60,000 nucleotides of DNA from Botryllus schlosseri (taxonomy: Eukaryota), in assembly GCA_051294905.1 (NCBI GenBank), contig CM119371.1, positions 17,052,001-17,112,000 on the forward strand, read 5' to 3'. The notes beneath the pieces are model-generated. The model was not told where the DNA came from. It saw only the letters and a list, made by a program, of their open reading frames with translations, and did not search any database. Shown piece by piece: positions 6,278 through 55,500 of the stretch. The stretch's first letter is position 1, and the number at the start of each line of letters is the position of its first letter. The translations under genes and the position numbers were made by a program.

Positions 6278-6875
6278 ACATGGGCTGCAAGGGATGTCAG
6301 TAACATCAGGTCGTATGCCGCTGTGCACAGTCTATTGTCGCTAATTTGCATCAATAATACCAAAATACTAAATTACAAATGTAAGGCGAAATATTGGACA
6401 TAAAATCGGCATTTTAAAACAAAACGGTTTCGATTTCAACATAGAAGCTGTTTCGACCCTGACGTCACTTCATTTATGTGCATTGCGATATTTATTAACG
6501 TCAGGTAGGAAGTACCGATTCAAGAAGTCTGAGCTATCGCGGCGGTTTCCTCAAGAATCACTAAAAGGCAAATGACTAGCTGAACACATGTTTGCTGCAT
6601 ACTTTCCAACACCAAACGGAACCATTGGTCTATTGCCTACGGCTAAATGAAAAGGAGAAATATTTGCTTATGACATCACAATCAAGCGGTGTACAGTATT
6701 ACACTTGAGATAACATCGTACTACATTGCTCATTAACCTGTGCGTCAACCTGTACTGACCCATAAACCTGCCTTTGTGATAGCTAGCAATCGGCTCATTT
6801 TAATTCGGATCTGGTACACCCCTGTACACCCCATCCGAGTGGTACACCCTTTGCAAATTTTTGTACACCCTAGGG

Positions 6876-8131
6876 CAGTGCTCTTCAACGGGGGTTGTCG
6901 TACACCCTAGGGTGTACCGGAATTCGCAAAGGGTGTACCACTCGGATGGGGTGTACAGGGGTGTACCAGATCCGAATTACAATGAGCCGATGGCTAGCTA
7001 TCACAAAGGCAGGTTTAGAGGTCAGTACAGGTTGACGCACAGGTTAATGAGCAATATGGTACGATGTTATCTCAATTGTAATACTGTACACCGCTTGATT
7101 GTGGTGTCATAAGCAAATATTTCTTCTATTCATTTAGCCGTCGGCAATAGACCAATGGTTTCGTTTGGTGTTGGAAAGTATGCAGCTTACAAACATGTGT
7201 TCAGCTAGTCATTTGTCTTTCAGTGATTTTTGAGGAAACCGCCGCGATAGCTCAGACTTTTTGAATCTGTACTTCCTATCCGACAGTGATAAATACGCAA
7301 TGCACGTACATGAAGTGACGTAGCCAGCCAGGGTCGAAACAGTTTCCATGTTGAAATGGAAACCCTTTTGTTTTAAAATGCCGATCGTATTTCCAATATT
7401 TCGCCATATATTTGCAATTTAGTATTTTTTTATTAGTGATGTAAATTAGCGACAATAGACTGCGTATACCGGCATACGATCTGAGGTTACTGACATCTCT
7501 TGCAGCCCTTGTGCTACTATCGACTGTGTGTGGTGTGGGCCAGGCCTGATACGAAGTAGGCTGGAGCTCCTGCTATCATCGCTGATCTGAAATACCGCTT
7601 CCGCAGCAGTAGCTTTACCTACTCTCTCCCCAATACTGTTACATTTAGGTTGATTATCGTTCGTAATATCATGCTGTTTTTGCTCTGACACGAAATAAAT
7701 TCCAATTTGCGTGGAGGGCGGCTTAACTGGCTGCGAATAGACTCTGTGATTAAATACTATTTTATTCAAGTCTAAATTTTTTGACGGCAATAACTCCGCT
7801 TCTACTGGTCTGAATTGAACCAAATTTTAAGAACATCGTATTTATAGACAACCTAATACTTTCATGGGGTGAACAGAACAATTTCAAATTTTTCGTTATT
7901 TATTTTATATAATTAATAGAAACTTTCTTCTCCCGTAGCAAGGCGGCTACTGGTTGGAATTGAACCAAATTTGGTGTGTAGGCTTAAGTTAGGTAACCTA
8001 ACAATGTTATCAAGTAGCCAGTACGATTTGAGAAAAATAGTCATTTTTGAAGACCCCTAATGGACAGGGGGTACGAGTTTTGAGCAAACGCTAAAAGGGT
8101 GTACCACATCGAAAAAGGTTGAGGAGCACTG
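6876..8131 (-). mobile_element. hAT-type MITE (inner copy B), same family as A, inverted
   Basis: CAGTGCTCTTCAAC...GGTTGAGGAGCACTG; flanks CCCTAGGG (6868-6875) and CCCATAGGG (8132-8140); reverse complement of copy A along its length (ORFs 5669+ and 7446- are homologous). Confidence 0.88.
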
Positions 8132-18196: not shown

Positions 18197-19173
18197 CAGT
18201 GTTGGGATCAAGTCACTACCTTCGAGTCACGAGTCATCTCGAGTCATTGCAGATTTTGACTCGAGTCAAGTCAAGTCAATCGATTTTCAAAGGTGACTCG
18301 AGTCAAGTCAAGTCACTGGTTTTTTGGAGGTGACTCGAGTCAAGTCGAGTCAAGTCAAGTCAAGTCAAGTCACGAGTCAAGTCACAATTCAAGTCAAATT
18401 GAATTTTTGAAGTACGAGGGATGGTTCAAAGTCAAAAGTCAGTATATTTTGCTAGCTGTGTGAAAGACAGATTATTTGATCATTTATGTTGAATGAAATA
18501 ACGAATATCAAGTTAAATATGCATGCGAAAAGACGTATCCCTCACGCAACGCACACATAGAACTGTCAGTTGTCATCAGCCAGAATATAGGACCTGATGC
18601 GAAGCTTCGAGAAGTTGAAACAAATTGATATGATACAATAGCCTACACATCTACCTACCCGTCTACACATACCTGAGAATATAAATGCACAAACTATATT
18701 CGTCCGATTTAAATCATACAAGAGGGTTGGTGAATGTGAGCATTGCGCAACATAGCATTTGGCCGTCTAAGAAACAGAGACACATTGCTATTTAGATTAA
18801 TCTTCTATTACTACTTCGACGACGTAAGCTATGATCGTTGAGTTTGCGGTCAATTTAGTTGTGACGTAACAATGGAGGATCCATGTAACGAGGATCAGTG
18901 AATGACTGGTTGCTCTCACAAGTGACACCGGCGTATTTCGAACAATCTTAACATACACAAGATACAGTGATTTAATCGACAGCGTTTACTTGATGACTTG
19001 AAATTGACTCGTAAATTTTTCTTCGAGTCACGAGTCAATGCACATTTTTGAAGCTCCGAGTCAAGTCAAGTCAAGTCATTTTTCCAAAGTGACTCGAGTC
19101 AAGTCAAGTCATACGAAAAAGTTGACTCGAGTCTGACTCGAGTCAAGTCATGACTCGAGTCATCCCAACACTG
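18197..19173. mobile_element. hAT-type MITE with GAGTCAAGTC subterminal arrays
   Basis: TIRs CAGTGTTGGGAT / ATCCCAACACTG; exact 8-bp TSD GCTATAGG (18189-18196, 19174-19181); many GACTCGAGTC(AAGTC)n units at both ends. Confidence 0.93.
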
Positions 19174-38403: not shown

Positions 38404-38682
38404 GGTTGCCCGACATATGAGCATGCGACACAATGGAAAACGACAGTTCAGCATGGAACACATCAGCATGCGTCACTTCAGCATGTGACTGTATAACCCC
38501 AAAACTTACCCTAACCCGAAACATAGCCTAACCTAACCTAACCTAAAGCCTAACCCTAACCCAACCATAAATCCAACCCTAACCTACCCCTAACCCGTAA
38601 TTTAACCCACATGCTCATGTGTCGCATGCCGAAGTCTCGCATGCTGTAATGTCAATGTCGCATGCTCATATGTCCACGGACC
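38404..38682. mobile_element. MULE-like MITE with 9-bp TSD and (CCTAAC)n core
   Basis: GGTTGCCCGACATATGAGCATGCGACA / TGTCGCATGCTCATATGTCCACGGACC; exact TSD GGCTCTCTT (38395-38403, 38683-38691). Confidence 0.88.
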
Positions 38683-40184
38683 GGCTCTCTTATCGTACCG
38701 TCTCTGTGTCGTTGGAATACTCATTATTTGATGTGTTCTGGTTTCTCGATATCTGATCGAGTTAAGATTATTTTTTTAATCGGCCTTCCTCTGAACTCTG
38801 GTTTAAGAGAATTTCGCTGCGTAGTACATTTTTAGAGAGTGTTTTAGTCACTGCGAATGGTTTGAACAGAAACAAGAAAAAGTAACGGGAAATTAAACGG
38901 CAAAAACTGTGTTTGTAACACTGTGCGTGGAACAATGAATTTGCTTTCTCAGATACAGCTGAAAAACCGATTTGTCATATTTGTCGAAGAACAATTGTCG
39001 CGAAGAAGCATAAAATGATACAACGAAAATTTCTTCTGGAGTTATACATATAACCTGATCTTGAAAATCGTTGCTAGCTAGAAGTCAAGCCCGAGAATCT
39101 ATATTTCAAGGCATTGTTAAAATTGCCAACGACGTTACAGGCACATTGGAATAACGCTAAACCCAAGGAATTTGCTTGAGAAGGAGTAATTTCAATCAAA
39201 ATTTAAAATGCTGTGCGAATTTTCGCTGTTTCTTGCACTTAGCAGCAGGGACACCAACACATGACAGATTTCGAAGCTACAGTTGTCTGATGCAGCCGCG
39301 ACCAGAAGAGTAGCAGTAATGTCAGTCAATCTCCTATTGCACGTTGCCGCATAGACCACATTAGCCTAGCATTGGGCCACTCCACAAACTTCACAGATGC
39401 TGCATAGCAAATGATCTGGGTGCATTTTATCAGAGTGGACATATTTGCAGAGGAAATGCAGGCAAGGCAAACGTGGGGAGGGGACCAGCGAAAAGCATCA
39501 ACACTACAAAGCTGACTTCTGTAACTATTGCTGACCTCAAAACACCAGACTTTTTCTCTTATCAGGGAGAGCTCAAAGGGATAATGGCCTCTGTAACGAA
39601 AATGTTACGGTAATGCGCCGCTGGGAGATGCATTATTCTGAAAATAAAACAGCAACTGTTAACTTACGAACGGTGTCCATCATTGCTTTAGAATGCATTT
39701 ATTATTAACATTAATTGTGAAAATGGGACATTGTGGCGCTTATCACCTTATTTGCGCCACGGCAAAAAATTTCGTATTGCATGTCGCAAATCGTTTACCT
39801 AAAAAGAAAATTGCCTAAATCAACACACCAGGACGAACTCAACGAGAGGCGATAGAAGTTCCGGCAGGTTATCTATGGTGAACTCAACTTTCACGTTCAA
39901 GCAGAAATCAATCAAATATATGCTAGGTGCCAATCATATTTTGGGCATTCGAGGAGGAAGTGATCCACATTCTCGGGTACGACTTTAGAATGCATAAAAA
40001 GGTACTAAACGCCCGTCGCCCGTATAGGACTGGTAAATAGGCTACACAGTAGCCTAGGTTTAATAGTAGCCCGCAAATACATAGTAAAAATGTTCTGCGG
40101 CCCGCGGCGTCTTTTGCTGGTAAAATGCGAGTAGTGTTATGGGAATCGTTTATTGCCCGCCAATCCCAGAAGGCCACGTCGCCT

Positions 40185-40410
40185 TAATTGCCACACCTAC
40201 ATTGCCACATCATCCGCCCATTGCCGCACCTACGGGACGCCTATTGCCACATCATCCCCCCATTGCCGCACCTATAGCACACCTATTGCCACATCATCCA
40301 CCCATTGGTACATCACATACCACATTCATCTGTGTCACATCATCAAGCGTCACACCTATAGTGCCACATCATCCATTGCCACATCATCACCGCATTGATT
40401 GCCGCATCTA
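40185..40410 (+). repeat. Subterminal short tandem repeats (ATTGCCACATCATCC / ATTGCCGCACCTA units); mirrored at ~55109-55334
   Basis: Read directly; accounts for the repetitive LPHHPPIAAP ORF text. Confidence 0.85.
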
Positions 40411-40479
40411 TATTGTGCACAGCGCCGCATCAACCAGCGCGATGTCGATTGCTGCACCTATAACACTCATTACCACGCC

Positions 40480-40556
40480 AAAACTTTCCTTAGCTAGAAT
40501 CGAACCTGGCTTGGATGGGTATAATGTCACGTCGCTCACCACCGGGCTATTGAGCA
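40480..40556 (-). ncRNA. Putative tRNA-like Pol III transcription unit (left arm copy)
   Basis: Minus strand: A-box-like TAGCCCGGTGG, B-box-like GGTTCGATTCT at tRNA-like spacing, then TTTT. Confidence 0.45.
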
Positions 40557-41668
40557 AACTACCCGTATTGAGCTGTTTTGAGAATATAACCGCCGATTCT
40601 CTCTTAAATTCCGAGACAACACCTTTTTCGAGTTATTACACATAAATGTAAGACTATAACAGCTGTGTCATCATTAATTAGTCAATGATTTCGGGGAATT
40701 CTGCAAATGCAACTTAATAATACAGATATCGCAACCATAAAGGCCTACGATCACGCAAAGCTCATGCACCGCGCATATTGCCGAATACTATTCCAAGAAA
40801 TTGACGCGTGTAAATGCGGCACGAATATAGTTGCTTACGATTCCAAGAAGTCGGATCACATCGACAATATGAATTAGAACATTCTAAATATAGTTGCGAT
40901 TCCAAAAAGTCGGATCACATCGATAATGGGAATTAGAACATTCTAAATATAGTTGCGTTTCCAAGAAAACGCCGCGCTGGCGTTACGAATTAGAATGTTT
41001 AGTTCCGACGTAAAGCAATTCGCATTCTGAAAACTTCACATTTCTATTACAAGTATTGCCATGTGCGCAGGGACGCAGGTATCGCAGCTGAGGTAAGACC
41101 AATGTATTTTCGTGTCAATTTAAACTCAATTTAGCTATAATTTCTCGATGCAGCATTAGCTTACGCGAATTGTGAACGCAGATTGATTTACGTTGAGATT
41201 TCTCCAATAGCTAACGTAATGGTGAGTCCTGCGCGTGGCTATAATGTTAACCGGCAATATAGCCGAAGTCGCACAAATTCGAATGTATACGCAAGTTTTC
41301 TGTTAAAGGTAGACTATCTAGGCTCGCTTATTACTCGAATCTCGGTGTGGTTATAATAATTAGCTAGAGCAATAGTTTATCACCTATATTTAAATTCGCT
41401 CATTTCATTTCAGATCAAAACGCCGACATCGCATATACGCAATTTACGCTCGGAAAATTTCGCATTTATCACAACTATCGCGCTATGCACTTCAGCTAAT
41501 GACGCAGGTGATTTAGGCTACATTTCCGTATAGATTCGCACTAAATTTGGTTATAATTACGCGGGTATGCACTTCGGATTTGAGATGGATGTTAGTCTAT
41601 GAATTCTTGCTTTACTCGCGACCTAAAGTTGATAAATTGCGAGTTGTAGCAAGCATCTAACTACTGAG

Positions 41669-43027
41669 ATTATGCCGATTTTACAAGTCCATAAGCTGCT
41701 GCTTTTAGATATGTGATTTTAATAGCTAGTGCACTGATGCTTTTCCGATAGTGAATTAAATCTATAGCTAAACCTATGTCTATGCTATAATTTATCTCCT
41801 AAAACGCTATGCCACTGCGGGCTATAACATTTCAGATCACTGACATCACATCTGTTCCAGACGGTAGCGTTCAAGGCTACATCTTTGCGCAGCTATATCA
41901 AAGAAGTGTGCCGAGGTCGTATCAAAGTCGCTCAACTATAGCATAGATTGTGCCCGCAAAATGCAAATTCGTATTAAGTGTAGCCTGGCTAGCTTCGCTT
42001 ATTACTCAATGTTCAGTAACGCCGTATTAATGTAAGCTGCGTTTGCCGGGGCTATAGGAACGAAGTCACTCAATACAAATTCCTGGCTCTTGCTAGATGA
42101 TGATAATATGAAGCCACTACTCCATAAGCTGCTGCTTTTAGATATGTGATTTGCATTATGCCGATTTTACAAGTCCATAAGCTGCTGCTTTTAGATATGT
42201 GATTTTAATAGTTAGTGCACTGATGCTTTTCCGATAGTGAATTAAATCTATAGCTAAACCTATGTCTATACTATAATTTATCTCCTAAAACGCTATGCCA
42301 CTGCGGGCTATAACATTTCAGATCACTGACATCACATCTGTTCCAGACGCTTGCGTTCAAGGCTACATCTTTGCGCAGCTATATCAAAGAAGTGTGCCGA
42401 GGTCGTATCAAAGTCGCTCAACTATAGCATAGATTGTACCAGCAAAATGCAAATTCGTATTAAGGGTAGCCTGCCTAGTCCCGCTTATTACTCGATGTAT
42501 AGTAACGCCGTAATGTAAGTTGCGTTTGCTGTAGGAGCGAAGTCACTCAATACAAATTCCTGTTTCTTGCTAGATGATGATAATATGAAGCCACTAGCCC
42601 ATAAGCTGCTGCTTTTAGATATGTGATTTGCATTATGCCGATTTTACAAGTCCATAAGCTGCTGCTTTTAGATATGTGATTTTAATAGCTAGTGCACTGA
42701 TGCTTTTCCGACAGTGAATTAAATCTATAGCTAAACCTATGTCTATGCTATAATTTATCTCCTAAAACGGTATGCCACTGCGGGCTATAACATTTCAGAT
42801 CACTGACATCACATTTGTCCCAGACGCTAGCGTTCAAGGCTACATCTCTGCGCAGCTATATCAAAGAAGTGTGCCGAGGTCGTATCAAAGTCGCTCAACT
42901 ATAGCATAGATTGTAGCAGCAAAATGCAAATTCGTATTAAGGGTAGCCTGCCTAGTCCCGCTTATTACTCGATGTTCAGTACCGCCGTAATGTAAGCTGC
43001 GTTTGCTGTAGGAGCGAAGTCACTCAA
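41669..43027 (+). repeat. ~480-bp tandem repeat, ~3 copies; mirrored at ~52492-53850
   Basis: Unit start ATTATGCCGATTTTACAAGTCC at 41669, 42155 and 42632. Confidence 0.92.
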
Positions 43028-43574
43028 TTTTTAGATTCAAATATAGCGTATCGAGTACTTTTTTCTCAACTGTAATAAAAACTTTTAGACTCTGGATTTT
43101 GTGTAGTAGGCTATATACTAATTTACAATACCGCATTTGTAATTCGTGCAAGTACAGGAATATCATAGTTCTTGTAACAAAGTTGTCTGCGCACAATATA
43201 TGTTAATCATAAGTCCTACACATTCATGGTTTCGTCCAAGTTTGAGTTTTAGAAAATATTATACCGACATCGCGGCATCTTTTAAAAACAAAACCATGAT
43301 CAATGGTTGAGAGACCATTTTTGCTATTTTTCATTGACATAAGTCATTCTGGAACGCGAAAACGCATTGTACGATATAGATGAAAATTAAGCAAATCCTA
43401 GGATCCTCATTTTCAAAGTAGCTTAGATCTCGAAATAAGCTTTGACTCGCTATTCTCCTCAAACCATGGAATTATCACGAGTATCAGCACCTTCGATCAC
43501 TGAAGAAAAGGATGAAATTATATCCGAAGCATATTCCTTGACCAGGAATTTTATCATGTACGAACTCGACGGCT

Positions 43575-46370
43575 CATGCTAATATGTGACTCCTCACCTT
43601 GAAACTTGGTACGTAGTTGTAGGAATTGTGATAATGCAGCATACCAAATTTCCTCACGCATTTCATAATGGAACAACTTTAAAACTAACGCGGTTCTACA
43701 TCGACTTTTTGCGTACATCTGTTTTGCGTGGGGGCGTATAGCACGTACCTATACATAGTCAACTTTAACAACGGAATTACCATGCTTAACATTGAATCCC
43801 AACTCGAAACTTGATACGTAGTTGTAGAACATTATGGCAATGCACCATGCTAAATTTCATCACACATCTAATGATGGAACACCTTTAAAACTAACGCAGT
43901 CGAATACCGACTTTTACGCATATCTGTTTTGCGTGAACATAGCATATACCTATACATAGTCAATTTTAATAGCAGAATTACCGTGTTAAACATTGAATTC
44001 CCACCTTGAAAGTTGGTACGCGGTTATAGGAGATTATAACAATGCACCATACCAAATCCCATCACACATTTCATGATGGAACAACTTTAAAACTAACGCG
44101 GCTCTACATCGACTTTTTGCGTACATCTGTTTTGTGGGAGCGTATAGCACGTAGCCTACCCATACATAGCCAACTTTAATAACGGAATTACCATGCTTAA
44201 CATTGAATCCCAACTCGAAACTTGATACGTAGTTATAGGACATTATGGCAATTCACCATGCTAAATTTCATCACACATCTAATGATGGAACACCTTTGAA
44301 ACTATCGCAGTCGAATACCAACTTTTACGCATATCTGTTTTTCGTGAACATAGCATATACCCATACATAGTCAATTTTAATAACAGAATTAGCATGCTAA
44401 ACATTAAATTCTCACCTTGAACGTTGATACGCGGTTATAGGACATAATAACAATGCACCATACCAAATTTTGTCAGACATTTCATGATGTAACACCTTTA
44501 AAACCAACGCAGTTCTATACAGACTTTTGGCTAAATCTGTTTTTCCGTAGCGTAGCACGTACCTATACATAGTCAACTTTAATAACGGATTTAGCATGTT
44601 AATAATCGACTTAGTTTAAATAAAATACGGAATATAAACTAATCGAAAAATTCGGTAACCAATTTCGCGTAGGCTATGCATGCATACAAATGAGGAAAGT
44701 TACATCAACGCGTGTTAAAGTAGCTGTATCGAGTTATCGAATGATTTTTCCTTACATCAAAACAACTAGAATGTATAACTAAATTGAAAAACGTATCTAA
44801 ATGAGCTCCAGGGCATTGTGATTATGCTGCATACCAAATTTCATCACACATTTCATGATGGAACAACTTTAAAACTAACGCAGTTCTATAGCAACTTTTG
44901 CCTAAATCTGTTTTCGGTAGCGTGTACATATACATAGTCAGATTTATTAACAGAATTATCATGCTAATATGTGACTCCTCACCTTGAAACTTGGTACGTA
45001 GTTGTAGGACATTGTGATTATGCAGCATACCAAATTTCTTCACGCATTTCATAATGGAACAACTTTAAAACTAACGCGGTTCTACATCGACTTTTTGCGT
45101 ACATCTGTTTTGCGAGGGGGCGTATAGCACGTACCTATACATAGTCAACTTTAACAACGGAATTACCATGCTTAACATTGAATCCCAACTCGAAACTTGA
45201 TACGTAGTTGTAGGACATTATGGCAATGCACCATGCTAAATTTCATCACACATCTAATGATGGAACACCTTTAAAACTAACGCAGTCGAATACCGACTTT
45301 TACGCATATCTGTTTTGCGTGAACATAGCATATACCTATACATAGTCAATTTTAATAGCAGAATTACCGTGTTAAACATTGAATTCCCACCTTGAAAGTT
45401 GGTACGCGGTTATAGGAGATTATAACAATGCACCATACCAAATCCCATCACACATTTCATGATGGAACAACTTTAAAACTAACGCGGCTCTACATCGACT
45501 TTTTGCGTACATCTGTTTTGCGGGAGCGCATAGCACGTAGCCTACCCATACATAACCAAATTTAATAACGGAATTACCATGCTTAACATTGAATCCCAAC
45601 TCGAAACTTGATACGTAGTTATAGGACATTATGGCAATTCACCATGCTAAAGTTCATCACACATCTAATGATGGAACACCTTTGAAACTATCGCAGTCGA
45701 ATACCAACTTTTACGCATATCTGTTTTTCGTGAACATAGCATATACCCATACATAGTCAATTTTAATAACAGAATTAGCATGCTAAACATTAAATTCTCA
45801 CCTTGAACGTTGATACGCGGTTGTAGGACATAATAACAATGCACCATACCAAATTTCGTCAGACATTTCATGATGTAACACCTTTAAAACCAACGCAGTT
45901 CTATACAGACTTTTGGCTAAATCTGTTTTTCCGTAGCGTAGCACGTACCTATACATAGTCAACTTTAATAACGGATTTAGCATGTTAATAATCGACTCCC
46001 CACCTTGAAACTCGGTACGCAGTTGTAAGACATTATGACAATGCACCATGTCAAATTTTGTTACGCATTTCTTGATTGAACAACTTTAAAACTAACGCAG
46101 TTCCATACCGACTTTTGCGAGTGCGTAGCACGTACCTATATGCATACTCAACTTTCATAACGGAATTACCGAGCTAAACATTGAATGCGCAACTTGAAGA
46201 TTGGTTCACAGGTGTAGGGCAGTATGACAATGGAACACATCAAATTTCATCACACATTTCATGATGGAACACCTTTAAAACTAACGCAGTTCTATACCAA
46301 CCTCGCGTGAATCTGTTTGCGGGAGCGTAGCACGTACCTATGCGTGATCAACTTTAGTGATGGAATTACA
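43575..46370 (+). repeat. ~185-190-bp satellite-like array with a 1386-bp higher-order duplication; mirrored at ~49150-51945
   Basis: Recurring ACCAAATTTCATCACACATTTCATGATGGAACA.CTTTAAAACTAACGC; ORFs 44034 and 45420 are offset by 1386 bp; unique interruption at ~44610-44810. Confidence 0.92.
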
Positions 46371-46443
46371 TATGTAATTAAGTTTCAACACTTTTACAAT
46401 GATTCGTCTTGCTTCCTATAACATCCCACTCGAGAAAATGCGT

Positions 46444-47730
46444 CGTAGGATATAGATGAAACTAGCACCACTCATCAAGACCGCTGAAAACAGTACATTT
46501 CAACATTTAGTAGCAGTAAATTTCTAGTAAAGTACAAGACGTGATGATTTCCGAGTGAGCTAAAAAGTAAGTATTGCAGGTATAGTTTACCTGAAAACCG
46601 AATACTCTGAAATAGAAGTAGATGCAGTGTAAATAGTTAATCACTTGATTAAGTTTAGTGCAAGCAGATAAAACCTATACTTGAGTAGTACAAAATGCAC
46701 GAGTACTTCGCTATCGCCTCCCTCCACGTAATAAGTGTCTACGGTTTAAGACTGCTTTTACCGATACTCGTCCGTTTCAGTTTTAGATAGAATTCGGAAA
46801 CCAAATAATTTCATAGACATAAGCTAATTTAATGAATTTACTCGAATGTACTATGCTGCGCTGATAAGATTAATTATAATATACTTATCATGTTACAGCG
46901 ATTTTTCTAGCGTAGAAAATCTTTAAAATGTAGTAAGCAGGCCAAATGAAGATATTCGTTGAGCTGAATAAACATAAAAAATACTCTAGACTACTTTATC
47001 GGTACTTTACAGTTACAGTTTTAGATAAAATTTGTCCCTTTCACCCATAATTACAACTCCTCGCTATCTAAACATGTTTAGAATATATTATTTGCGATGA
47101 TACGAACCCGTGAAGTACTCAAGTTGCTTTTCGTAGGATATAGATGAAACTGACAACACTCACCAAGACCAGTGATCCACTGAAAAAAGTACATTGTAGC
47201 AGTAAAGTCCTACTAAAGTACAAGAAGTAATGATTTCCCAGTTAGTTAAAAAGTAAGTATTCAGGTATAGTTTGGTCGAAAAAGCGAAAAACTCTGAAAT
47301 AGAAGTAGATGCAGTGGAAATAGGTAATCACTTCATTAAGTATAGCGCAAGCAGGCCAAACCTATACTTAAGTACTGCAAATGTACAAGTACTTCGCTAT
47401 GTTCTCCCTCCACGTAAAAAGTGACTAGGTTTTAGAGTACTTTATCGGTACTCGACAGTTTCAGTGTTAGATGAAATTTGGTAAGACTTTAAATTTCAAA
47501 GTAGTTTGAGCTTACGTTTGTATCACCTTGACAAGTAACATTATCAGACATGAAAATGATACTATCACCGAATATAGAAGTTAACACGCGTCAGTGTGCT
47601 TCGGAATTCACGAGAAATTGCTTACTAAGAGAAGTATATTGTTGTATACACAATAGTGGAGAGAATATTTAAAATGTAGTTAGCAGGCCGATGGGTATTC
47701 GTTTAGTTGTACAGGCATAAAAAACATTCC
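46444..47730 (+). repeat. Diverged ~690-bp tandem duplication next to the palindrome centre; mirrored in the right arm
   Basis: CGTAGGATATAGATGAAACT at ~46444 and ~47132; CTCTGAAATAGAAGTAGATGCAGTG occurs in both. Confidence 0.85.
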
Positions 47731-47737
47731 CGCGCGC

Positions 47738-47781
47738 GTCTTAGTATTAGGTGGTAGGGTTAGGAAGTGTTTTGTTTAAGA
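47738..47781. other. 44-bp asymmetric central spacer of the palindrome
   Basis: GTCTTAGTATTAGGTGGTAGGGTTAGGAAGTGTTTTGTTTAAGA, between CCCGCGCGC and GCGCGCGGG. Confidence 0.95.
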
Positions 47782-50700
47782 GCGCGCGGGAATGTTTTTT
47801 ATGCCTGTACAACTAAACGAATACCCATCGGCCTGCTAACTACATTTTAAATATTCTCTCCACTATTGTGTATACAACAATATACTTCTCTTAGTAAGCA
47901 ATTTCTCGTGAATTCCGAAGCACATTGACGCGTGTTAACTTCTATATTCGGTGATAGTATCATTTTCATGTCCGATAATGTTACTTGTCAAGGTGATACA
48001 AACGTAAGCTCAAACTACTTTGAAATTTAAAGTCTTACCAAATTTTATCTAACACTGAAACTGTCGAGTACCGATAAAGTACTCTAAAACCTAGTCACTT
48101 TTTACGTGGAGGGAGAACATAGCGAAGTACTTGTACATTTGCAGTACTTAAGTATAGGTTTGGCCTGCTTGCGCTATACTTAATGAAGTGATTACCTATT
48201 TACACTGCATCTACTTCTATTTCAGAGTTTTTCGCTTTTTCGACCAAACTATACCTGAATACTTACTTTTTAACTAACTGGGAAATCATTACTTCTTGTA
48301 CTTTAGTAGGACTTTACTGCTACAATGTACTTTTTTCAGTGGATCACTGGTCTTGGTGAGTGTTGTCAGTTTCATCTATATCCTACGAAAAGCAACTTGA
48401 GTACTTCACGGGTTCGTATCATCGCAAATAATATATTCTAAACATGTTTAGATAGCGAGGAGTTGTAATTATGGGTGAAAGGGACAAATTTTATCTAAAA
48501 CTGTAACTGTAAAGTACCGATAAAGTAGTCTAGAGTATTTTTTATGTTTATTCAGCTCAACGAATATCTTCATTTGGCCTGCTTACTACATTTTAAAGAT
48601 TTTCTACGCTAGAAAAATCGCTGTAACATGATAAGTATATTATAATTAATCTTATCAGCGCAGCATAGTACATTCGAGTAAATTCATTAAATTAGCTTAT
48701 GTTTATGAAATTATTTGGTTTCCGAATTCTATCTAAAACTGAAACGGACGAGTATCGGTAAAAGCAGTCTTAAACCGTAGACACTTATTACGTGGAGGGA
48801 GGCGATAGCGAAGTACTCGTGCATTTTGTACTACTCAAGTATAGGTTTTATCTGCTTGCACTAAACTTAATCAAGTGATTAACTATTTACACTGCATCTA
48901 CTTCTATTTCAGAGTATTCGGTTTTCAGGTAAACTATACCTGCAATACTTACTTTTTAGCTCACTCGGAAATCATCACGTCTTGTACTTTACTAGAAATT
49001 TACTGCTACTAAATGTTGAAATGTACTGTTTTCAGCGGTCTTGATGAGTGGTGCTAGTTTCATCTATATCCTACGACGCATTTTCTCGAGTGGGATGTTA
49101 TAGGAAGCAAGACGAATCATTGTAAAAGTGTTGAAACTTAATTACATATGTAATTCCATCACTAAAGTTGATCACGCATAGGTACGTGCTACGCTCCCGC
49201 AAACAGATTCACGCGAGGTTGGTATAGAACTGCGTTAGTTTTAAAGGTGTTCCATCATGAAATGTGTGATGAAATTTGATGTGTTCCATTGTCATACTGC
49301 CCTACACCTGTGAACCAATCTTCAAGTTGCGCATTCAATGTTTAGCTCGGTAATTCCGTTATGAAAGTTGAGTATGCATATAGGTACGTGCTACGCACTC
49401 GCAAAAGTCGGTATGGAACTGCGTTAGTTTTAAAGTTGTTCAATCAAGAAATGCGTAACAAAATTTGACATGGTGCATTGTCATAATGTCTTACAACTGC
49501 GTACCGAGTTTCAAGGTGGGGAGTCGATTATTAACATGCTAAATCCGTTATTAAAGTTGACTATGTATAGGTACGTGCTACGCTACGGAAAAACAGATTT
49601 AGCCAAAAGTCTGTATAGAACTGCGTTGGTTTTAAAGGTGTTACATCATGAAATGTCTGACGAAATTTGGTATGGTGCATTGTTATTATGTCCTACAACC
49701 GCGTATCAACGTTCAAGGTGAGAATTTAATGTTTAGCATGCTAATTCTGTTATTAAAATTGACTATGTATGGGTATATGCTATGTTCACGAAAAACAGAT
49801 ATGCGTAAAAGTTGGTATTCGACTGCGATAGTTTCAAAGGTGTTCCATCATTAGATGTGTGATGAACTTTAGCATGGTGAATTGCCATAATGTCCTATAA
49901 CTACGTATCAAGTTTCGAGTTGGGATTCAATGTTAAGCATGGTAATTCCGTTATTAAATTTGGTTATGTATGGGTAGGCTACGTGCTATGCGCTCCCGCA
50001 AAACAGATGTACGCAAAAAGTCGATGTAGAGCCGCGTTAGTTTTAAAGTTGTTCCATCATGAAATGTGTGATGGGATTTGGTATGGTGCATTGTTATAAT
50101 CTCCTATAACCGCGTACCAACTTTCAAGGTGGGAATTCAATGTTTAACACGGTAATTCTGCTATTAAAATTGACTATGTATAGGTATATGCTATGTTCAC
50201 GCAAAACAGATATGCGTAAAAGTCGGTATTCGACTGCGTTAGTTTTAAAGGTGTTCCATCATTAGATGTGTGATGAAATTTAGCATGGTGCATTGCCATA
50301 ATGTCCTACAACTACGTATCAAGTTTCGAGTTGGGATTCAATGTTAAGCATGGTAATTCCGTTGTTAAAGTTGACTATGTATAGGTACGTGCTATACGCC
50401 CCCACGCAAAACAGATGTACGCAAAAAGTCGATGTAGAACCGCGTTAGTTTTAAAGTTGTTCCATTATGAAATGCGTGAAGAAATTTGGTATGCTGCATA
50501 ATCACAATGTCCTACAACTACGTACCAAGTTTCAAGGTGAGGAGTCACATATTAGCATGATAATTCTGTTAATAAATCTGACTATGTATATGTACACGCT
50601 ACCGAAAACAGATTTAGGCAAAAGTTGCTATAGAACTGCGTTAGTTTTAAAGTTGTTCCATCATGAAATGTGTGATGAAATTTGGTATGCAGCATAATCA

Positions 50701-53700
50701 CAATGCCCTGGAGCTCATTTAGATACGTTTTTCAATTTAGTTATACATTCTAGTTGTTTTGATGTAAGGAAAAATCATTCGATAACTCGATACAGCTACT
50801 TTAACACGCGTTGATGTAACTTTCCTCATTTGTATGCATGCATAGCCTACGCGAAATTGGTTACCGAATTTTTCGATTAGTTTATATTCCGTATTTTATT
50901 TAAACTAAGTCGATTATTAACATGCTAAATCCGTTATTAAAGTTGACTATGTATAGGTACGTGCTACGCTACGGAAAAACAGATTTAGCCAAAAGTCTGT
51001 ATAGAACTGCGTTGGTTTTAAAGGTGTTACATCATGAAATGTCTGACGAAATTTGGTATGGTGCATTGCTATTATGTCCTATAACCGCGTATCAACGTTC
51101 AAGGTGAGAATTTAATGTTTAGCATGCTAATTCTGTTATTAAAATTGACTATGTATGGGTATATGCTATGTTCACGAAAAACAGATATGCGTAAAAGTTG
51201 GTATTCGACTGCGATAGTTTCAAAGGTGTTCCATCATTAGATGTGTGATGAAATTTAGCATGGTGAATTGCCATAATGTCCTATAACTACGTATCAAGTT
51301 TCGAGTTGAGATTCAATGTTAAGCATGGTAATTCCGTTATTAAAGTTGGCTATGTATGGGTAGGCTACGTGCTATACGCTCCCACAAAACAGATGTACGC
51401 AAAAAGTCGATGTAGAGCCGCGTTAGTTTTAAAGTTGTTCCATCATGAAATGTGTGATGGGATTTGGTATGGTGCATTGTTATAATCTCCTATAACCGCG
51501 TACCAACTTTCAAGGTGGAAATTCAATGTTTAACACGGTAATTCTGCTATTAAAATTGACTATGTATAGGTATATGCTATGTTCACGCAAAACAGATATG
51601 CGTAAAAGTCGGTATTCGACTGCGTTAGTTTTAAAGGTGTTCCATCATTAGATGTGTGATGAAATTTAGCATGGTGCATTGCCATAATGTTCTACAACTA
51701 CGTATCAAGTTTCGAGTTGGGATTCAATGTTAAGCATGGTAATTCCGTTGTTAAAGTTGACTATGTATAGGTACGTGCTATACGCCCCCACGCAAAACAG
51801 ATGTACGCAAAAAGTCGATGTAGAACCGCGTTAGTTTTAAAGTTGTTCCATTATGAAATGCGTGAGGAAATTTGGTATGCTGCATTATCACAATTCCTAC
51901 AACTACGTACCAAGTTTCAAGGTGAGGAGTCACATATTAGCATGAGCCGTCGAGTTCGTACATGATAAAATTCCTGGTCAAGGAATATGCTTCGGATATA
52001 ATTTCATCCTTTTCTTCAGTGATCGAAGGTGCTGATACTCGTGATAATTCCATGGTTTGAGGAGAATAGCGAGTCAAAGCTTATTTCGAGATCTAAGCTA
52101 CTTTGAAAATGAGGATCCTAGGATTTGCTTAATTTTCATCTATATCGTACAATGCGTTTTCGCGTTCCAGAATGACTTATGTCAATGAAAAATAGCAAAA
52201 ATGGTCTCTCAACCATTGATCATGGTTTTGTTTTTAAAAGATGCCGCGATGTCGGTATAATATTTTCTAAAACTCAAACTTGGACGAAACCATGAATGTG
52301 TAGGACTTATGATTAACATATATTGTGCGCAGACAACTTTGTTACAAGAACTATGATATTCCTGTACTTGCACGAATTACAAATGCGGTATTGTAAATTA
52401 GTATATAGCCTACTACACAAAATCCAGAGTCTAAAAGTTTTTATTACAGTTGAGAAAAAAGTATTCGATACGCTATATTTGAATCTAAAAATTGAGTGAC
52501 TTCGCTCCTACAGCAAACGCAGCTTACATTACGGCGGTACTGAACATCGAGTAATAAGCGGGACTAGGCAGGCTACCCTTAATACGAATTTGCATTTTGC
52601 TGCTACAATCTATGCTATAGTTGAGCGACTTTGATACGACCTCGGCACACTTCTTTGATATAGCTGCGCAGAGATGTAGCCTTGAACGCAAGCGTCTGGG
52701 ACAAATGTGATGTCAGTGATCTGAAATGTTATAGCCCGCAGTGGCATACCGTTTTAGGAGATAAATTATAGCATAGACATAGGTTTATCTATAGATTTAA
52801 TTCACTGTCGGAAAAGCATCAGTGCACTAGCTATTAAAATCACATATCTAAAAGCAGCAGCTTATGGACTTGTAAAATCGGCATAATGCAAATCACATAT
52901 CTAAAAGCAGCAGCTTATGGGCTAGTGGCTTCATATTATCATCATCTAGCAAGAAACAGGAATTTGTATTGAGTGACTTCGCTCCTACAGCAAACGCAAC
53001 TTACATTACGGCGTTACTATACATCGAGTAATAAGCGGGACTAGGCAGGCTACCCTTAATACGAATTTGCATTTTGCTGGTACAATCTATGCTATAGTTG
53101 AGCGACTTTGATACGACCTCGGCACACTTCTTTGATATAGCTGCGCAAAGATGTAGCCTTGAACGCAAGCGTCTGGAACAGATGTGATGTCAGTGATCTG
53201 AAATGTTATAGCCCGCAGTGGCATAGCGTTTTAGGAGATAAATTATAGTATAGACATAGGTTTAGCTATAGATTTAATTCACTATCGGAAAAGCATCAGT
53301 GCACTAACTATTAAAATCACATATCTAAAAGCAGCAGCTTATGGACTTGTAAAATCGGCATAATGCAAATCACATATCTAAAAGCAGCAGCTTATGGAGT
53401 AGTGGCTTCATATTATCATCATCTAGCAAGAGCCAGGAATTTGTATTGAGTGACTTCGTTCCTATAGCCCCGGCAAACGCAGCTTACATTAATACGGCGT
53501 TACTGAACATTGAGTAATAAGCGAAGCTAGCCAGGCTACACTTAATACGAATTTGCATTTTGCGGGCACAATCTATGCTATAGTTGAGCGACTTTGATAC
53601 GACCTCGGCACACTTCTTTGATATAGCTGCGCAAAGATGTAGCCTTGAACGCTACCGTCTGGAACAGATGTGATGTCAGTGATCTGAAATGTTATAGCCC

Positions 53701-54962
53701 GCAGTGGCATAGCGTTTTAGGAGATAAATTATAGCATAGACATAGGTTTAGCTATAGATTTAATTCACTATCGGAAAAGCATCAGTGCACTAGCTATTAA
53801 AATCACATATCTAAAAGCAGCAGCTTATGGACTTGTAAAATCGGCATAATCTCAGTAGTTAGATGCTTGCTACAACTCGCAATTTATCAACTTTAGGTCG
53901 CGAGTAAAGCAAGAATTCATAGACTAACATCCATCTCAAATCCGAAGTGCATACCCGCGTAATTATAACCAAATTTAGTGCGAATCTATACGGAAATGTA
54001 GCCTAAATCACCTGCGTCATTAGCTGAAGTGCATAGCGCGATAGTTGTGATAAATGCGAAATTTTCCGAGCGTAAATTGCGTATATGCGATGTCGGCGTT
54101 TTGATCTGAAATGAAATGAGCGAATTTAAATATAGGTGATAAACTATTGCTCTAGCTAATTATTATAACCACACCGAGATTCGAGTAATAAGCGAGCCTA
54201 GATAGTCTACCTTTAACAGAAAACTTGCGTATACATTCGAATTTGTGCGACTTCGGCTATATTGCCGGTTAACATTATAGCCACGCGCAGGACTCACCAT
54301 TACGTTAGCTATTGGAGAAATCTCAACGTAAATCAATCTGCGTTCACAATTCGCGTAAGCTAATGCTGCATCGAGAAATTATAGCTAAATTGAGTTTAAA
54401 TTGACACGAAAATACATTGGTCTTACCTCAGCTGCGATGCCTGCGTCCCTGCGCACATGGCAATACTTGTAATAGAAATGTGAAGTTTTCAGAATGCGAA
54501 TTGCTTTACGTCGGAACTAAACATTCTAATTCGTAACGCCAGCGCGGCGTTTTCTTGGAAACGCAACTATATTTAGAATGTTCTAATTCCCATTATCGAT
54601 GTGATCCGACTTTTTGGAATCGCAACTATATTTAGAATGTTCTAATTCATATTGTCGATGTGATCCGACTTCTTGGAATCGTAAGCAACTATATTCGTGC
54701 CGCATTTACACGCGTCAATTTCTTGGAATAGTATTCGGCAATATGCGCGGTGCATGAGCTTTGCGTGATCGTAGGCCTTTATGGTTGCGATATCTGTATT
54801 ATTAAGTTGCATTTGCAGAATTCCCCGAAATCATTGACTAATTAATGATGACACAGCTGTTATAGTCTTACATTTATGTGTAATAACTCGAAAAAGGTGT
54901 TGTCTCGGAATTTAAGAGAGAATCGGCGGTTATATTCTCAAAACAGCTCAATACGGGTAGTT

Positions 54963-55039
54963 TGCTCAATAGCCCGGTGGTGAGCGACGTGACATTATAC
55001 CCATCCAAGCCAGGTTCGATTCTAGCTAAGGTAAGTTTT
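54963..55039 (+). ncRNA. Putative tRNA-like Pol III transcription unit (right arm copy)
   Basis: TAGCCCGGTGG at 54970, GGTTCGATTCT at 55013, TTTT at 55036-55039. Confidence 0.45.
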
Positions 55040-55500
55040 GGCGTGGTAATGAGTGTTATAGGTGCAGCAATCGACATCGCGCTGGTTGATGCGGCGCTGT
55101 GCACAATATAGATGCGGCAATCAATGCGGAGATGATGTGGCAATGGATGATGTGGCACTATAGGTGTGACGCTTGATGATGTGACACAGATGAATGTGGT
55201 ATGTGATGTACCAATGGGTGGATGATGTGGCAATAGGTGTGCTATAGGTGCGGCAATGGGGGGATGATGTGGCAATAGGCGTCCCGTAGGTGCGGCAATG
55301 GGCGGATGATGTGGCAATGTAGGTGTGGCAATTAAGGCGACGTGGCCTTCTGGGATTGGCGGGCAATAAACGATTCCCATAACACTACTAATGCGGCCCG
55401 TTATACACGGGAAGTTGAGAACCCCTGGAGTAGAGGTAGAGATGATTGAAAATGAAGAATCGAAATTACAGAAATTATGCTGTGATTCACAAGTGTAATT

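Follow-up and report, generated by a model that had tools for sequence, protein, structure and literature searches.

The question raised by this stretch of the Botryllus schlosseri genome (60,000 nucleotides of contig CM119371.1, assembly GCA_051294905.1; hereafter the window) is why a 62-nt hairpin, at 47729-47790, lies at the very midpoint of a 15,260-bp palindrome that spans 40130-55389. An original prediction had suggested that this apex may be a working site rather than a random breakpoint. Our analysis points to the apex as a fold-back junction inherited by a palindromic, gene-less satellite of the Maverick/Polinton type, and probably as the site of the original fold-back. The contribution of the present work is the anatomy of the palindrome's centre and the record of its recurrence. 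The element that surrounds this centre is delimited by the following features:

40124..40129, + strand: left target-site duplication AATGCG, 6 bp (chance about 3e-4)
40130..40135, + strand: left end motif (AGT)2
40130..47737, + strand: non-coding left arm of 7,608 nt, which contains a 1,386-bp duplication besides tandem arrays (42-, 59-, 477- and 202-bp)
47782..55389, - strand: right arm, mirror of the left arm with 16 mismatches, ending in (ACT)2
55390..55395, + strand: right target-site duplication AATGCG, 6 bp

The two arms make up 15,216 of the 15,260 nt, and the interior is reduced to 44 nt. The element ends in AGTAGT//ACTACT, and both this end motif and the 6-bp duplication have a chance of about 3e-4 each. 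Among Mavericks, (AGT)2//(ACT)2 ends with a 6-bp duplication are the commonest signature, with (AG)3//(CT)3 as the alternative end motif; their lengths are given as 12.7-24.6 kb, and the inverted repeats of intact vertebrate elements measure 46-1,447 bp (PMC8097293). The element described here thus carries the end motif, the 6-bp target duplication and the terminal inverted repeats by which Mavericks/Polintons are recognized, the last of these far longer than usual. Since the palindrome stops exactly at the target duplication, it was inserted as a unit. The longest open frame in the arms has 173 aa, and no Pfam family exceeded the cut-off in 20 of the 22 frames of at least 55 aa (the two left out were near-duplicate or flank frames), the single hit being a zinc finger below the cut-off; none of the Maverick core genes (protein-primed polymerase, integrase, ATPase, protease and capsid) was found in the same 20 frames. 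It is, therefore, a gene-less element with Maverick/Polinton ends and not an autonomous Maverick. A 168-aa frame that starts 10 nt inside each end (40139-40645, with its mirror at 54874-55380) consists largely of 19/42-bp repeats, matches no Pfam family and is probably spurious. Together with the 1,386-bp duplication, the arrays of 477 bp and 202 bp occupy more than half of each arm (41669-46369 and mirror) and bring the element to the size of an intact Maverick; a packaging-size constraint is possible.

The centre itself is built of a GC-rich clamp, a one-base bulge, a short inner stem and a large loop:

47729..47737, + strand: left GC clamp CCCGCGCGC, which pairs with GCGCGCGGG
47738..47743, + strand: bulged G47738, then TCTTA (47739-47743), which forms the left side of the 5-bp inner stem
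47744..47776, + strand: 33-nt loop, G/T-rich on this strand
47750..47764, + strand: GGTGGTAGGGTTAGG, four G-tracts (GG, GG, GGG, GG), a weak candidate for a two-tier quadruplex
47755..47763, + strand: TAGGGTTAG, a nonamer named in a paper's title as the minimal human POT1 site, with 9 of the 10 letters of TTAGGGTTAG
47777..47781, + strand: right half of the inner stem, TAAGA
47782..47790, + strand: right GC clamp GCGCGCGGG

The loop also holds TAGGGTTAGG at 47755-47764. Every element of this anatomy that had been claimed for the apex, namely the clamp, the 1-nt bulge, the TCTTA/TAAGA stem and the four G-tracts, was confirmed letter for letter, and so was the AT-rich setting, the GC content being 34% across the 1 kb that precedes the clamp. 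The pairing of the clamp is uninformative in itself because the entire 7.6-kb arm is mirrored; for the same reason, the -23.4 kcal/mol calculated for the fold of the 80-nt hairpin means little, and the 44-nt spacer by itself has no stable fold (0 kcal/mol). An Rfam scan returned two microRNA-precursor matches far under their cut-offs (36.5 and 24.7 against 100 bits), which are mere hairpin matches.

The informative properties of the centre are its composition and its lack of relatives in the window. The clamp is the only all-G/C 9-mer among 7,600 in the arm, where 24 of 7,600 have at least eight G/C letters, and when the 44-nt spacer was shuffled 20,000 times, a bulge followed by a 5-bp inner stem turned up 14 times. 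Among 33-nt windows, four GG tracts separated by 1-3 nt are found in 152 of 44,676 from the flanks and in 0 of 7,576 from the arm; separations of 1-7 nt raise these counts to 580 and 123, respectively. An exact telomere 10-mer is present in 96 of 44,654 flanking 44-nt windows. All these patterns were picked post hoc and the overlapping windows are not independent. The relation between the centre and the adjoining arm was defined by two paralogous stretches:

46917..46986, + strand: unit within the arm, a paralogue of the sequence that leads up to the clamp
47663..47729, + strand: apex-proximal copy of that unit, similar to it as far as the clamp's first base

The 67 nt that precede the clamp are a diverged copy of the arm-internal unit (score 71, reached by none of 2,000 shuffles), and beyond the clamp the score falls to -26, which 1,907 of 2,000 shuffles reached. 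A spacer that is merely the worn continuation of the arm's repeat unit was ruled out on that count. No 16-mer of the 44-nt spacer within 2 mismatches and no 20-mer within 3 was found elsewhere in the window, nor was any further copy of arm or spacer. The centre forms a module of its own, without relation to the repeat unit of the arm. A small hairpin outside the element, at 38463-38648, has imperfect inverted arms and a CCTAA/CCCTAA-rich loop of some 100 nt; it shares the apex's design of a stem plus a telomere-like loop and holds the only other TAGGGTTAG in the window.

The same centre was found in other sequencing data. Part of 46400-47790 is held by 19 of the 24 runs listed, from 10 studies, and four of them were compared as contigs (X1, X10, X11 and X15), X1 being a set of 13,386 contigs. 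In X15, a run from another study, a 320-nt contig (record 26) spans 47484-47800 with four other letters and no gap; the differences were assigned by us to 47497, 47594, 47681 and 47712, none within the apex, whose clamp, bulge, stem and loop thus seem to be the same as in the window. A diverged X1 contig, about 86% alike, spans 47682-47799 with 16 other letters and one gap. The join between the left arm and the spacer is bridged by more than 31 letters on each side, and no loose ends at the apex occur among the 20 listed (251 more exist). The clamp lacks one of its CG steps in 4,811/32,906 of the X1 depth, or about 15% (20 contigs). Within 47715-47800 there were no variants among the best 40 of 98 rows of the variant table, against about 2.5 expected (p 0.08, estimated by hand); since the ranking favors high depth, a variant-free apex is weak evidence, and a conservation of the loop above the level of the arms was not supported. 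The summed depth of the X1 contigs (2e4 to 1.5e5) was used neither as a copy number nor as a ratio of arm to spacer. An apparent joint of opposite strands at 46945/47800 is explained by the paralogous 46917-46986 unit. Exact-pattern scans gave no match in viral contigs for the inner arm end, the terminus or the stem-loop join, and none in prokaryotic genomes for the loop; a single match in a metagenome contig was set aside as chance, a bacterial terminator-like stretch without BLAST similarity to the window. A spacer that differs among family members, which the original prediction had named as its own refutation, was not seen in the small sample compared. The view that the apex is not a random breakpoint is borne out by its non-random composition, its separate module and its recurrence at the same place.

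A further line of evidence comes from the equality of the two arms, judged from the same variant table and from one structural feature:

46433..46434, no strand: structural junction, mirrored in the right arm, at which the contigs of all four runs leave the window sequence

In 11 of the best 40 (of 98) variant rows, the left-arm letter of the window makes up less than 5% of the X1 depth. Seven of these rare letters stand in both arms, among them those at 47046 and 47681, which at 0.06% and 0.1% of the depth are as rare as one-arm mutations; the other four are left-arm-only mismatches at which the right arm has the common letter, and these are new mutations. There is no arm mismatch at 46433/46434, and many family members lack this junction, which the window copy has in both arms. 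The 1,386-bp duplication is also mirrored in both arms. The rare letters and the junction present in both arms are therefore changes that arose once and were copied to both, and this re-equalization of the arms fits what a snap-back hairpin cycle predicts. Of the proposed functional turn-around, then, the turning itself agrees with the family-rare letters and the junction that both arms share, and a working role of the loop is possible.

The explanation that we lean towards, and hold to be rather likely, is that a short GC-rich imperfect inverted repeat seeded a fold-back in the ancestor of the element, which since then would have cycled between a 15-kb duplex and a 7.6-kb hairpin by means of the protein-primed polymerase and integrase of a helper, with the loop carried along. 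The clamp, bulge and 5-bp stem would have folded in a displaced or broken single strand; DNA synthesis primed by this seed would have run back over the arm, so that one end was duplicated and the bulge and the loop stayed behind as the seed's unmirrored remains. In later cycles, the protein-primed polymerase of a helper Maverick would start at the (AGT)2 ends, the displaced strand would snap back into a 7.6-kb hairpin closed by the 33-nt loop, and the 15-kb duplex, with an integrase end on either side, would be restored by copying through the loop. Before insertion the arms would be equalized, either by mismatch repair acting on the folded strand or by strand switching that recurs at the apex. 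The clamp would speed and fix the folding, and the loop sequence would need no protein partner. Published work offers parallels: large palindromes are seeded by short inverted repeats that fold back and prime synthesis (PMC3734650), strong hairpins lead to self-complementary truncated adeno-associated virus (AAV) genomes via template switching (PMC7397707), and defective genomes of the snap-back type are palindromic over nearly their whole length and have no coding capacity (PMC13506859).

Several observations weigh against this explanation. The apex is fully covered in only two of the four runs, X11 reaching only to about 47763 and X10 not reaching it at all (which was not taken as absence), and one of the two, X1, may be the window's own sample. 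The right join has 18-22 letters beyond it in the listed contigs, under the 31-letter rule. The equality of the arms could also stem from chromosomal gene conversion, or partly from assembly consensus. Four of the 16 arm mismatches (47317-47594 and mirror) lie within 420 nt of the apex, where 0.9 are expected (binomial p 0.01 with the limit chosen afterwards; p 0.52 in the whole-arm test), and this runs opposite to a stronger repair near the loop; a cruciform-linked mutation is possible. No helper, free hairpin molecule or parent with an internally placed seed repeat was seen in the viral, prokaryotic and metagenome scans, and the clamp may predate the fold-back only in part.

The alternatives differ mainly in the work that they assign to the apex. 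One makes it a selected cis-acting cassette, whose clamp turns the polymerase in each cycle and whose loop binds the host POT1 or another reader of TTAGGG. The bound telomere protein would hide the hairpin end from Mre11-Rad50 and ATR, and the free form would be a linear replicon with one protein-primed end and one telomere-mimicking hairpin end; we regard this reading as unlikely. The loop does hold TAGGGTTAG, which occurs twice in the window (its chance, calculated post hoc from base frequencies, is about 2e-4 for a 33-nt loop) and is named as the minimal human POT1 site in a title that other papers cite. Hairpin ends are processed by Mre11-Rad50, and single strands are protected from ATR by POT1 (PMC13685816). 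Elsewhere in the window the 60-nt module is not closely matched by any 16- or 20-mer; it persists in the copy that is 86% alike and shows none of the best 40 variant rows. Full POT1 binding, however, needs TTAGGGTTAG (PMC3241663), of which the loop has nine of ten letters, and the POT1 of this animal may differ in its specificity. There is a single POT1-type site, the clamp tolerates the loss of one CG step, and the variant rows carry the depth bias already described. The small hairpin at 38463-38648 belongs to an unrelated repeat and also has a TTAGG-rich loop; therefore, such loops are part of this genome's repeat stock. In the most elaborate version, which we consider quite unlikely, the satellites would live outside the chromosome as hybrid linear replicons of 7.6 kb, protein-primed at one end and closed at the other by the dedicated 60-nt cassette, host shelterin capping the POT1-type loop. 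The original prediction also suggested that the loop might form a two-tier G-quadruplex; in the corresponding alternative, the quadruplex would pause the polymerase and trigger the turn. The closely spaced four-tract pattern is rare in the flanks, absent from the arm and present in 106 of 5,000 shuffles of the loop, and RNA parameters place a quadruplex in the loop of the 80-nt hairpin. But three of the four tracts are only GG, short of four tracts of at least three G, the same program predicts none in the 33-nt loop alone, and only one of the two strands could form it. Two-tier DNA quadruplexes are weak, and the best 25-nt score of the G4Hunter type is 0.96, below the usual threshold of 1.2, which 176 windows of the 60 kb reach. 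A working quadruplex is thus highly improbable.

A cut-and-paste foldback transposon resembling FB, or an inverted duplication made in place, with arms kept equal by chromosomal conversion and a passive apex, is very unlikely in our judgment. FB elements have very long inverted arms built of tandem repeats with little between, a build that the arms of this element recall, and conversion can spread private letters. Yet the ends and the duplication fit the Maverick rule exactly, with the chances given above, the palindrome was inserted as a unit, and mirrored large rearrangements are easier to obtain by re-copying than by conversion. We also give very little credence to a resolution site, one of the two roles that the original prediction had offered for the apex. 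At a site of the poxvirus or N15/Borrelia type, a resolvase would cut a palindromic dimer into two hairpin-ended halves; the integrated palindrome is indeed shaped like a replicated hairpin-telomere junction (PMC13685816; PMC3533235). Its centre is a 33-nt unpaired loop rather than a short-loop symmetric site, with no gap-free central palindrome, neither recombinase nor resolvase was found in the 20 of 22 arm frames scanned, and protein-primed strand displacement would give a hairpin without any cut; the claim was not supported. Finally, the palindrome and its centre could be an assembly or read fold-back artefact. Fold-back chimeras do make mirror images with short spacers, but the target duplication, the distinct flanks, the 16 arm mismatches and the same arm-to-spacer join in a second study leave this reading barely credible.

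The original prediction further held that hairpin replication or recombination between the arms would leave the spacer in both orientations among copies. We reject this test as empty on logical grounds, because a turned spacer in a perfect palindrome is the other strand of the same molecule. The orientation of the spacer is defined only at one locus, relative to the flanks or to arm-private letters, and copies at different loci guarantee both directions, which proves nothing.

Compared with known systems, the element agrees with Mavericks/Polintons (PMC8097293; PMC10748475) in its (AGT)2//(ACT)2 ends, its 6-bp duplication and a total length within the 12.7-24.6-kb range, and differs from them in that no core genes were found, in inverted repeats of 7,608 bp as against 46-1,447 bp, and in its 44-nt interior. 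With snap-back viral genomes (PMC13506859) and truncated AAV genomes (PMC7397707) it shares one end copied back, a non-coding near-total palindrome and a hairpin centre; unlike them, it is integrated, inherited and multi-copy, its one centre has been kept over at least about 14% divergence, and its loop has 33-44 nt. Palindromes of the Tetrahymena rDNA type (PMC3734650) also have a short spaced inverted repeat at the centre and fold-back priming, whereas the element is a mobile unit, outside programmed or cancer amplification, with an imperfect seed of at most 14 bp as against 42 bp. The hairpin telomeres of N15 (TelN), Borrelia (ResT) and poxviruses replicate to a palindromic junction (PMC13685816; PMC3533235), but the apex differs from them in its large unpaired loop, its GC-rich closing stem and the lack of a resolvase in the frames scanned, and the other end of the element is of the terminal-protein type. 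The end motif and 6-bp duplication, being of Maverick type, likewise set it apart from foldback transposons of the FB kind, which it resembles in very long tandem-repeat inverted arms with little between.

In the literature searched, no palindromic non-autonomous Polinton, nor the centre of one, is described, although repeat databases, subscription papers and supplements may hold such families. The publications compared (PMC10748475; PMC6431247; PMC5499653; PMC11296320; PMC3533235; PMC8009405; 10.1101/2025.02.07.637071; 10.64898/2026.07.28.741278) present Polintons without a polymerase, inverted repeats of about 2 kb and short terminal palindromes, and nothing of this element's build. The replication of animal Mavericks/Polintons rests on a model, with an excised strand, annealed ends and protein priming, rather than as observed intermediates (10.64898/2026.07.28.741278). 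A fixed turning point in a multi-copy palindromic satellite predicts a 7.6-kb snap-back molecule and an equality of the arms that is renewed with each insertion, and the variation of the 33-nt loop across copies would tell whether the loop is selected. If a telomere protein did bind the loop, the element would be concealing a DNA end in a manner new for mobile elements, and capping by POT1 would amount to telomere mimicry by the satellite of an endogenous virus-like element; if the loop is unbound, the apex still tells when and how the family arose.

Two further sets of repeats were observed in the window, away from the element. A second small palindrome lies at 6589-7191, with 287-nt arms at 94%, a 29-nt spacer and repeated GTACACCC motifs near its centre, and short arrays of TGACTCGAGTCA palindromes with AGTCA runs occupy 18257-18397 and 19052-19170.

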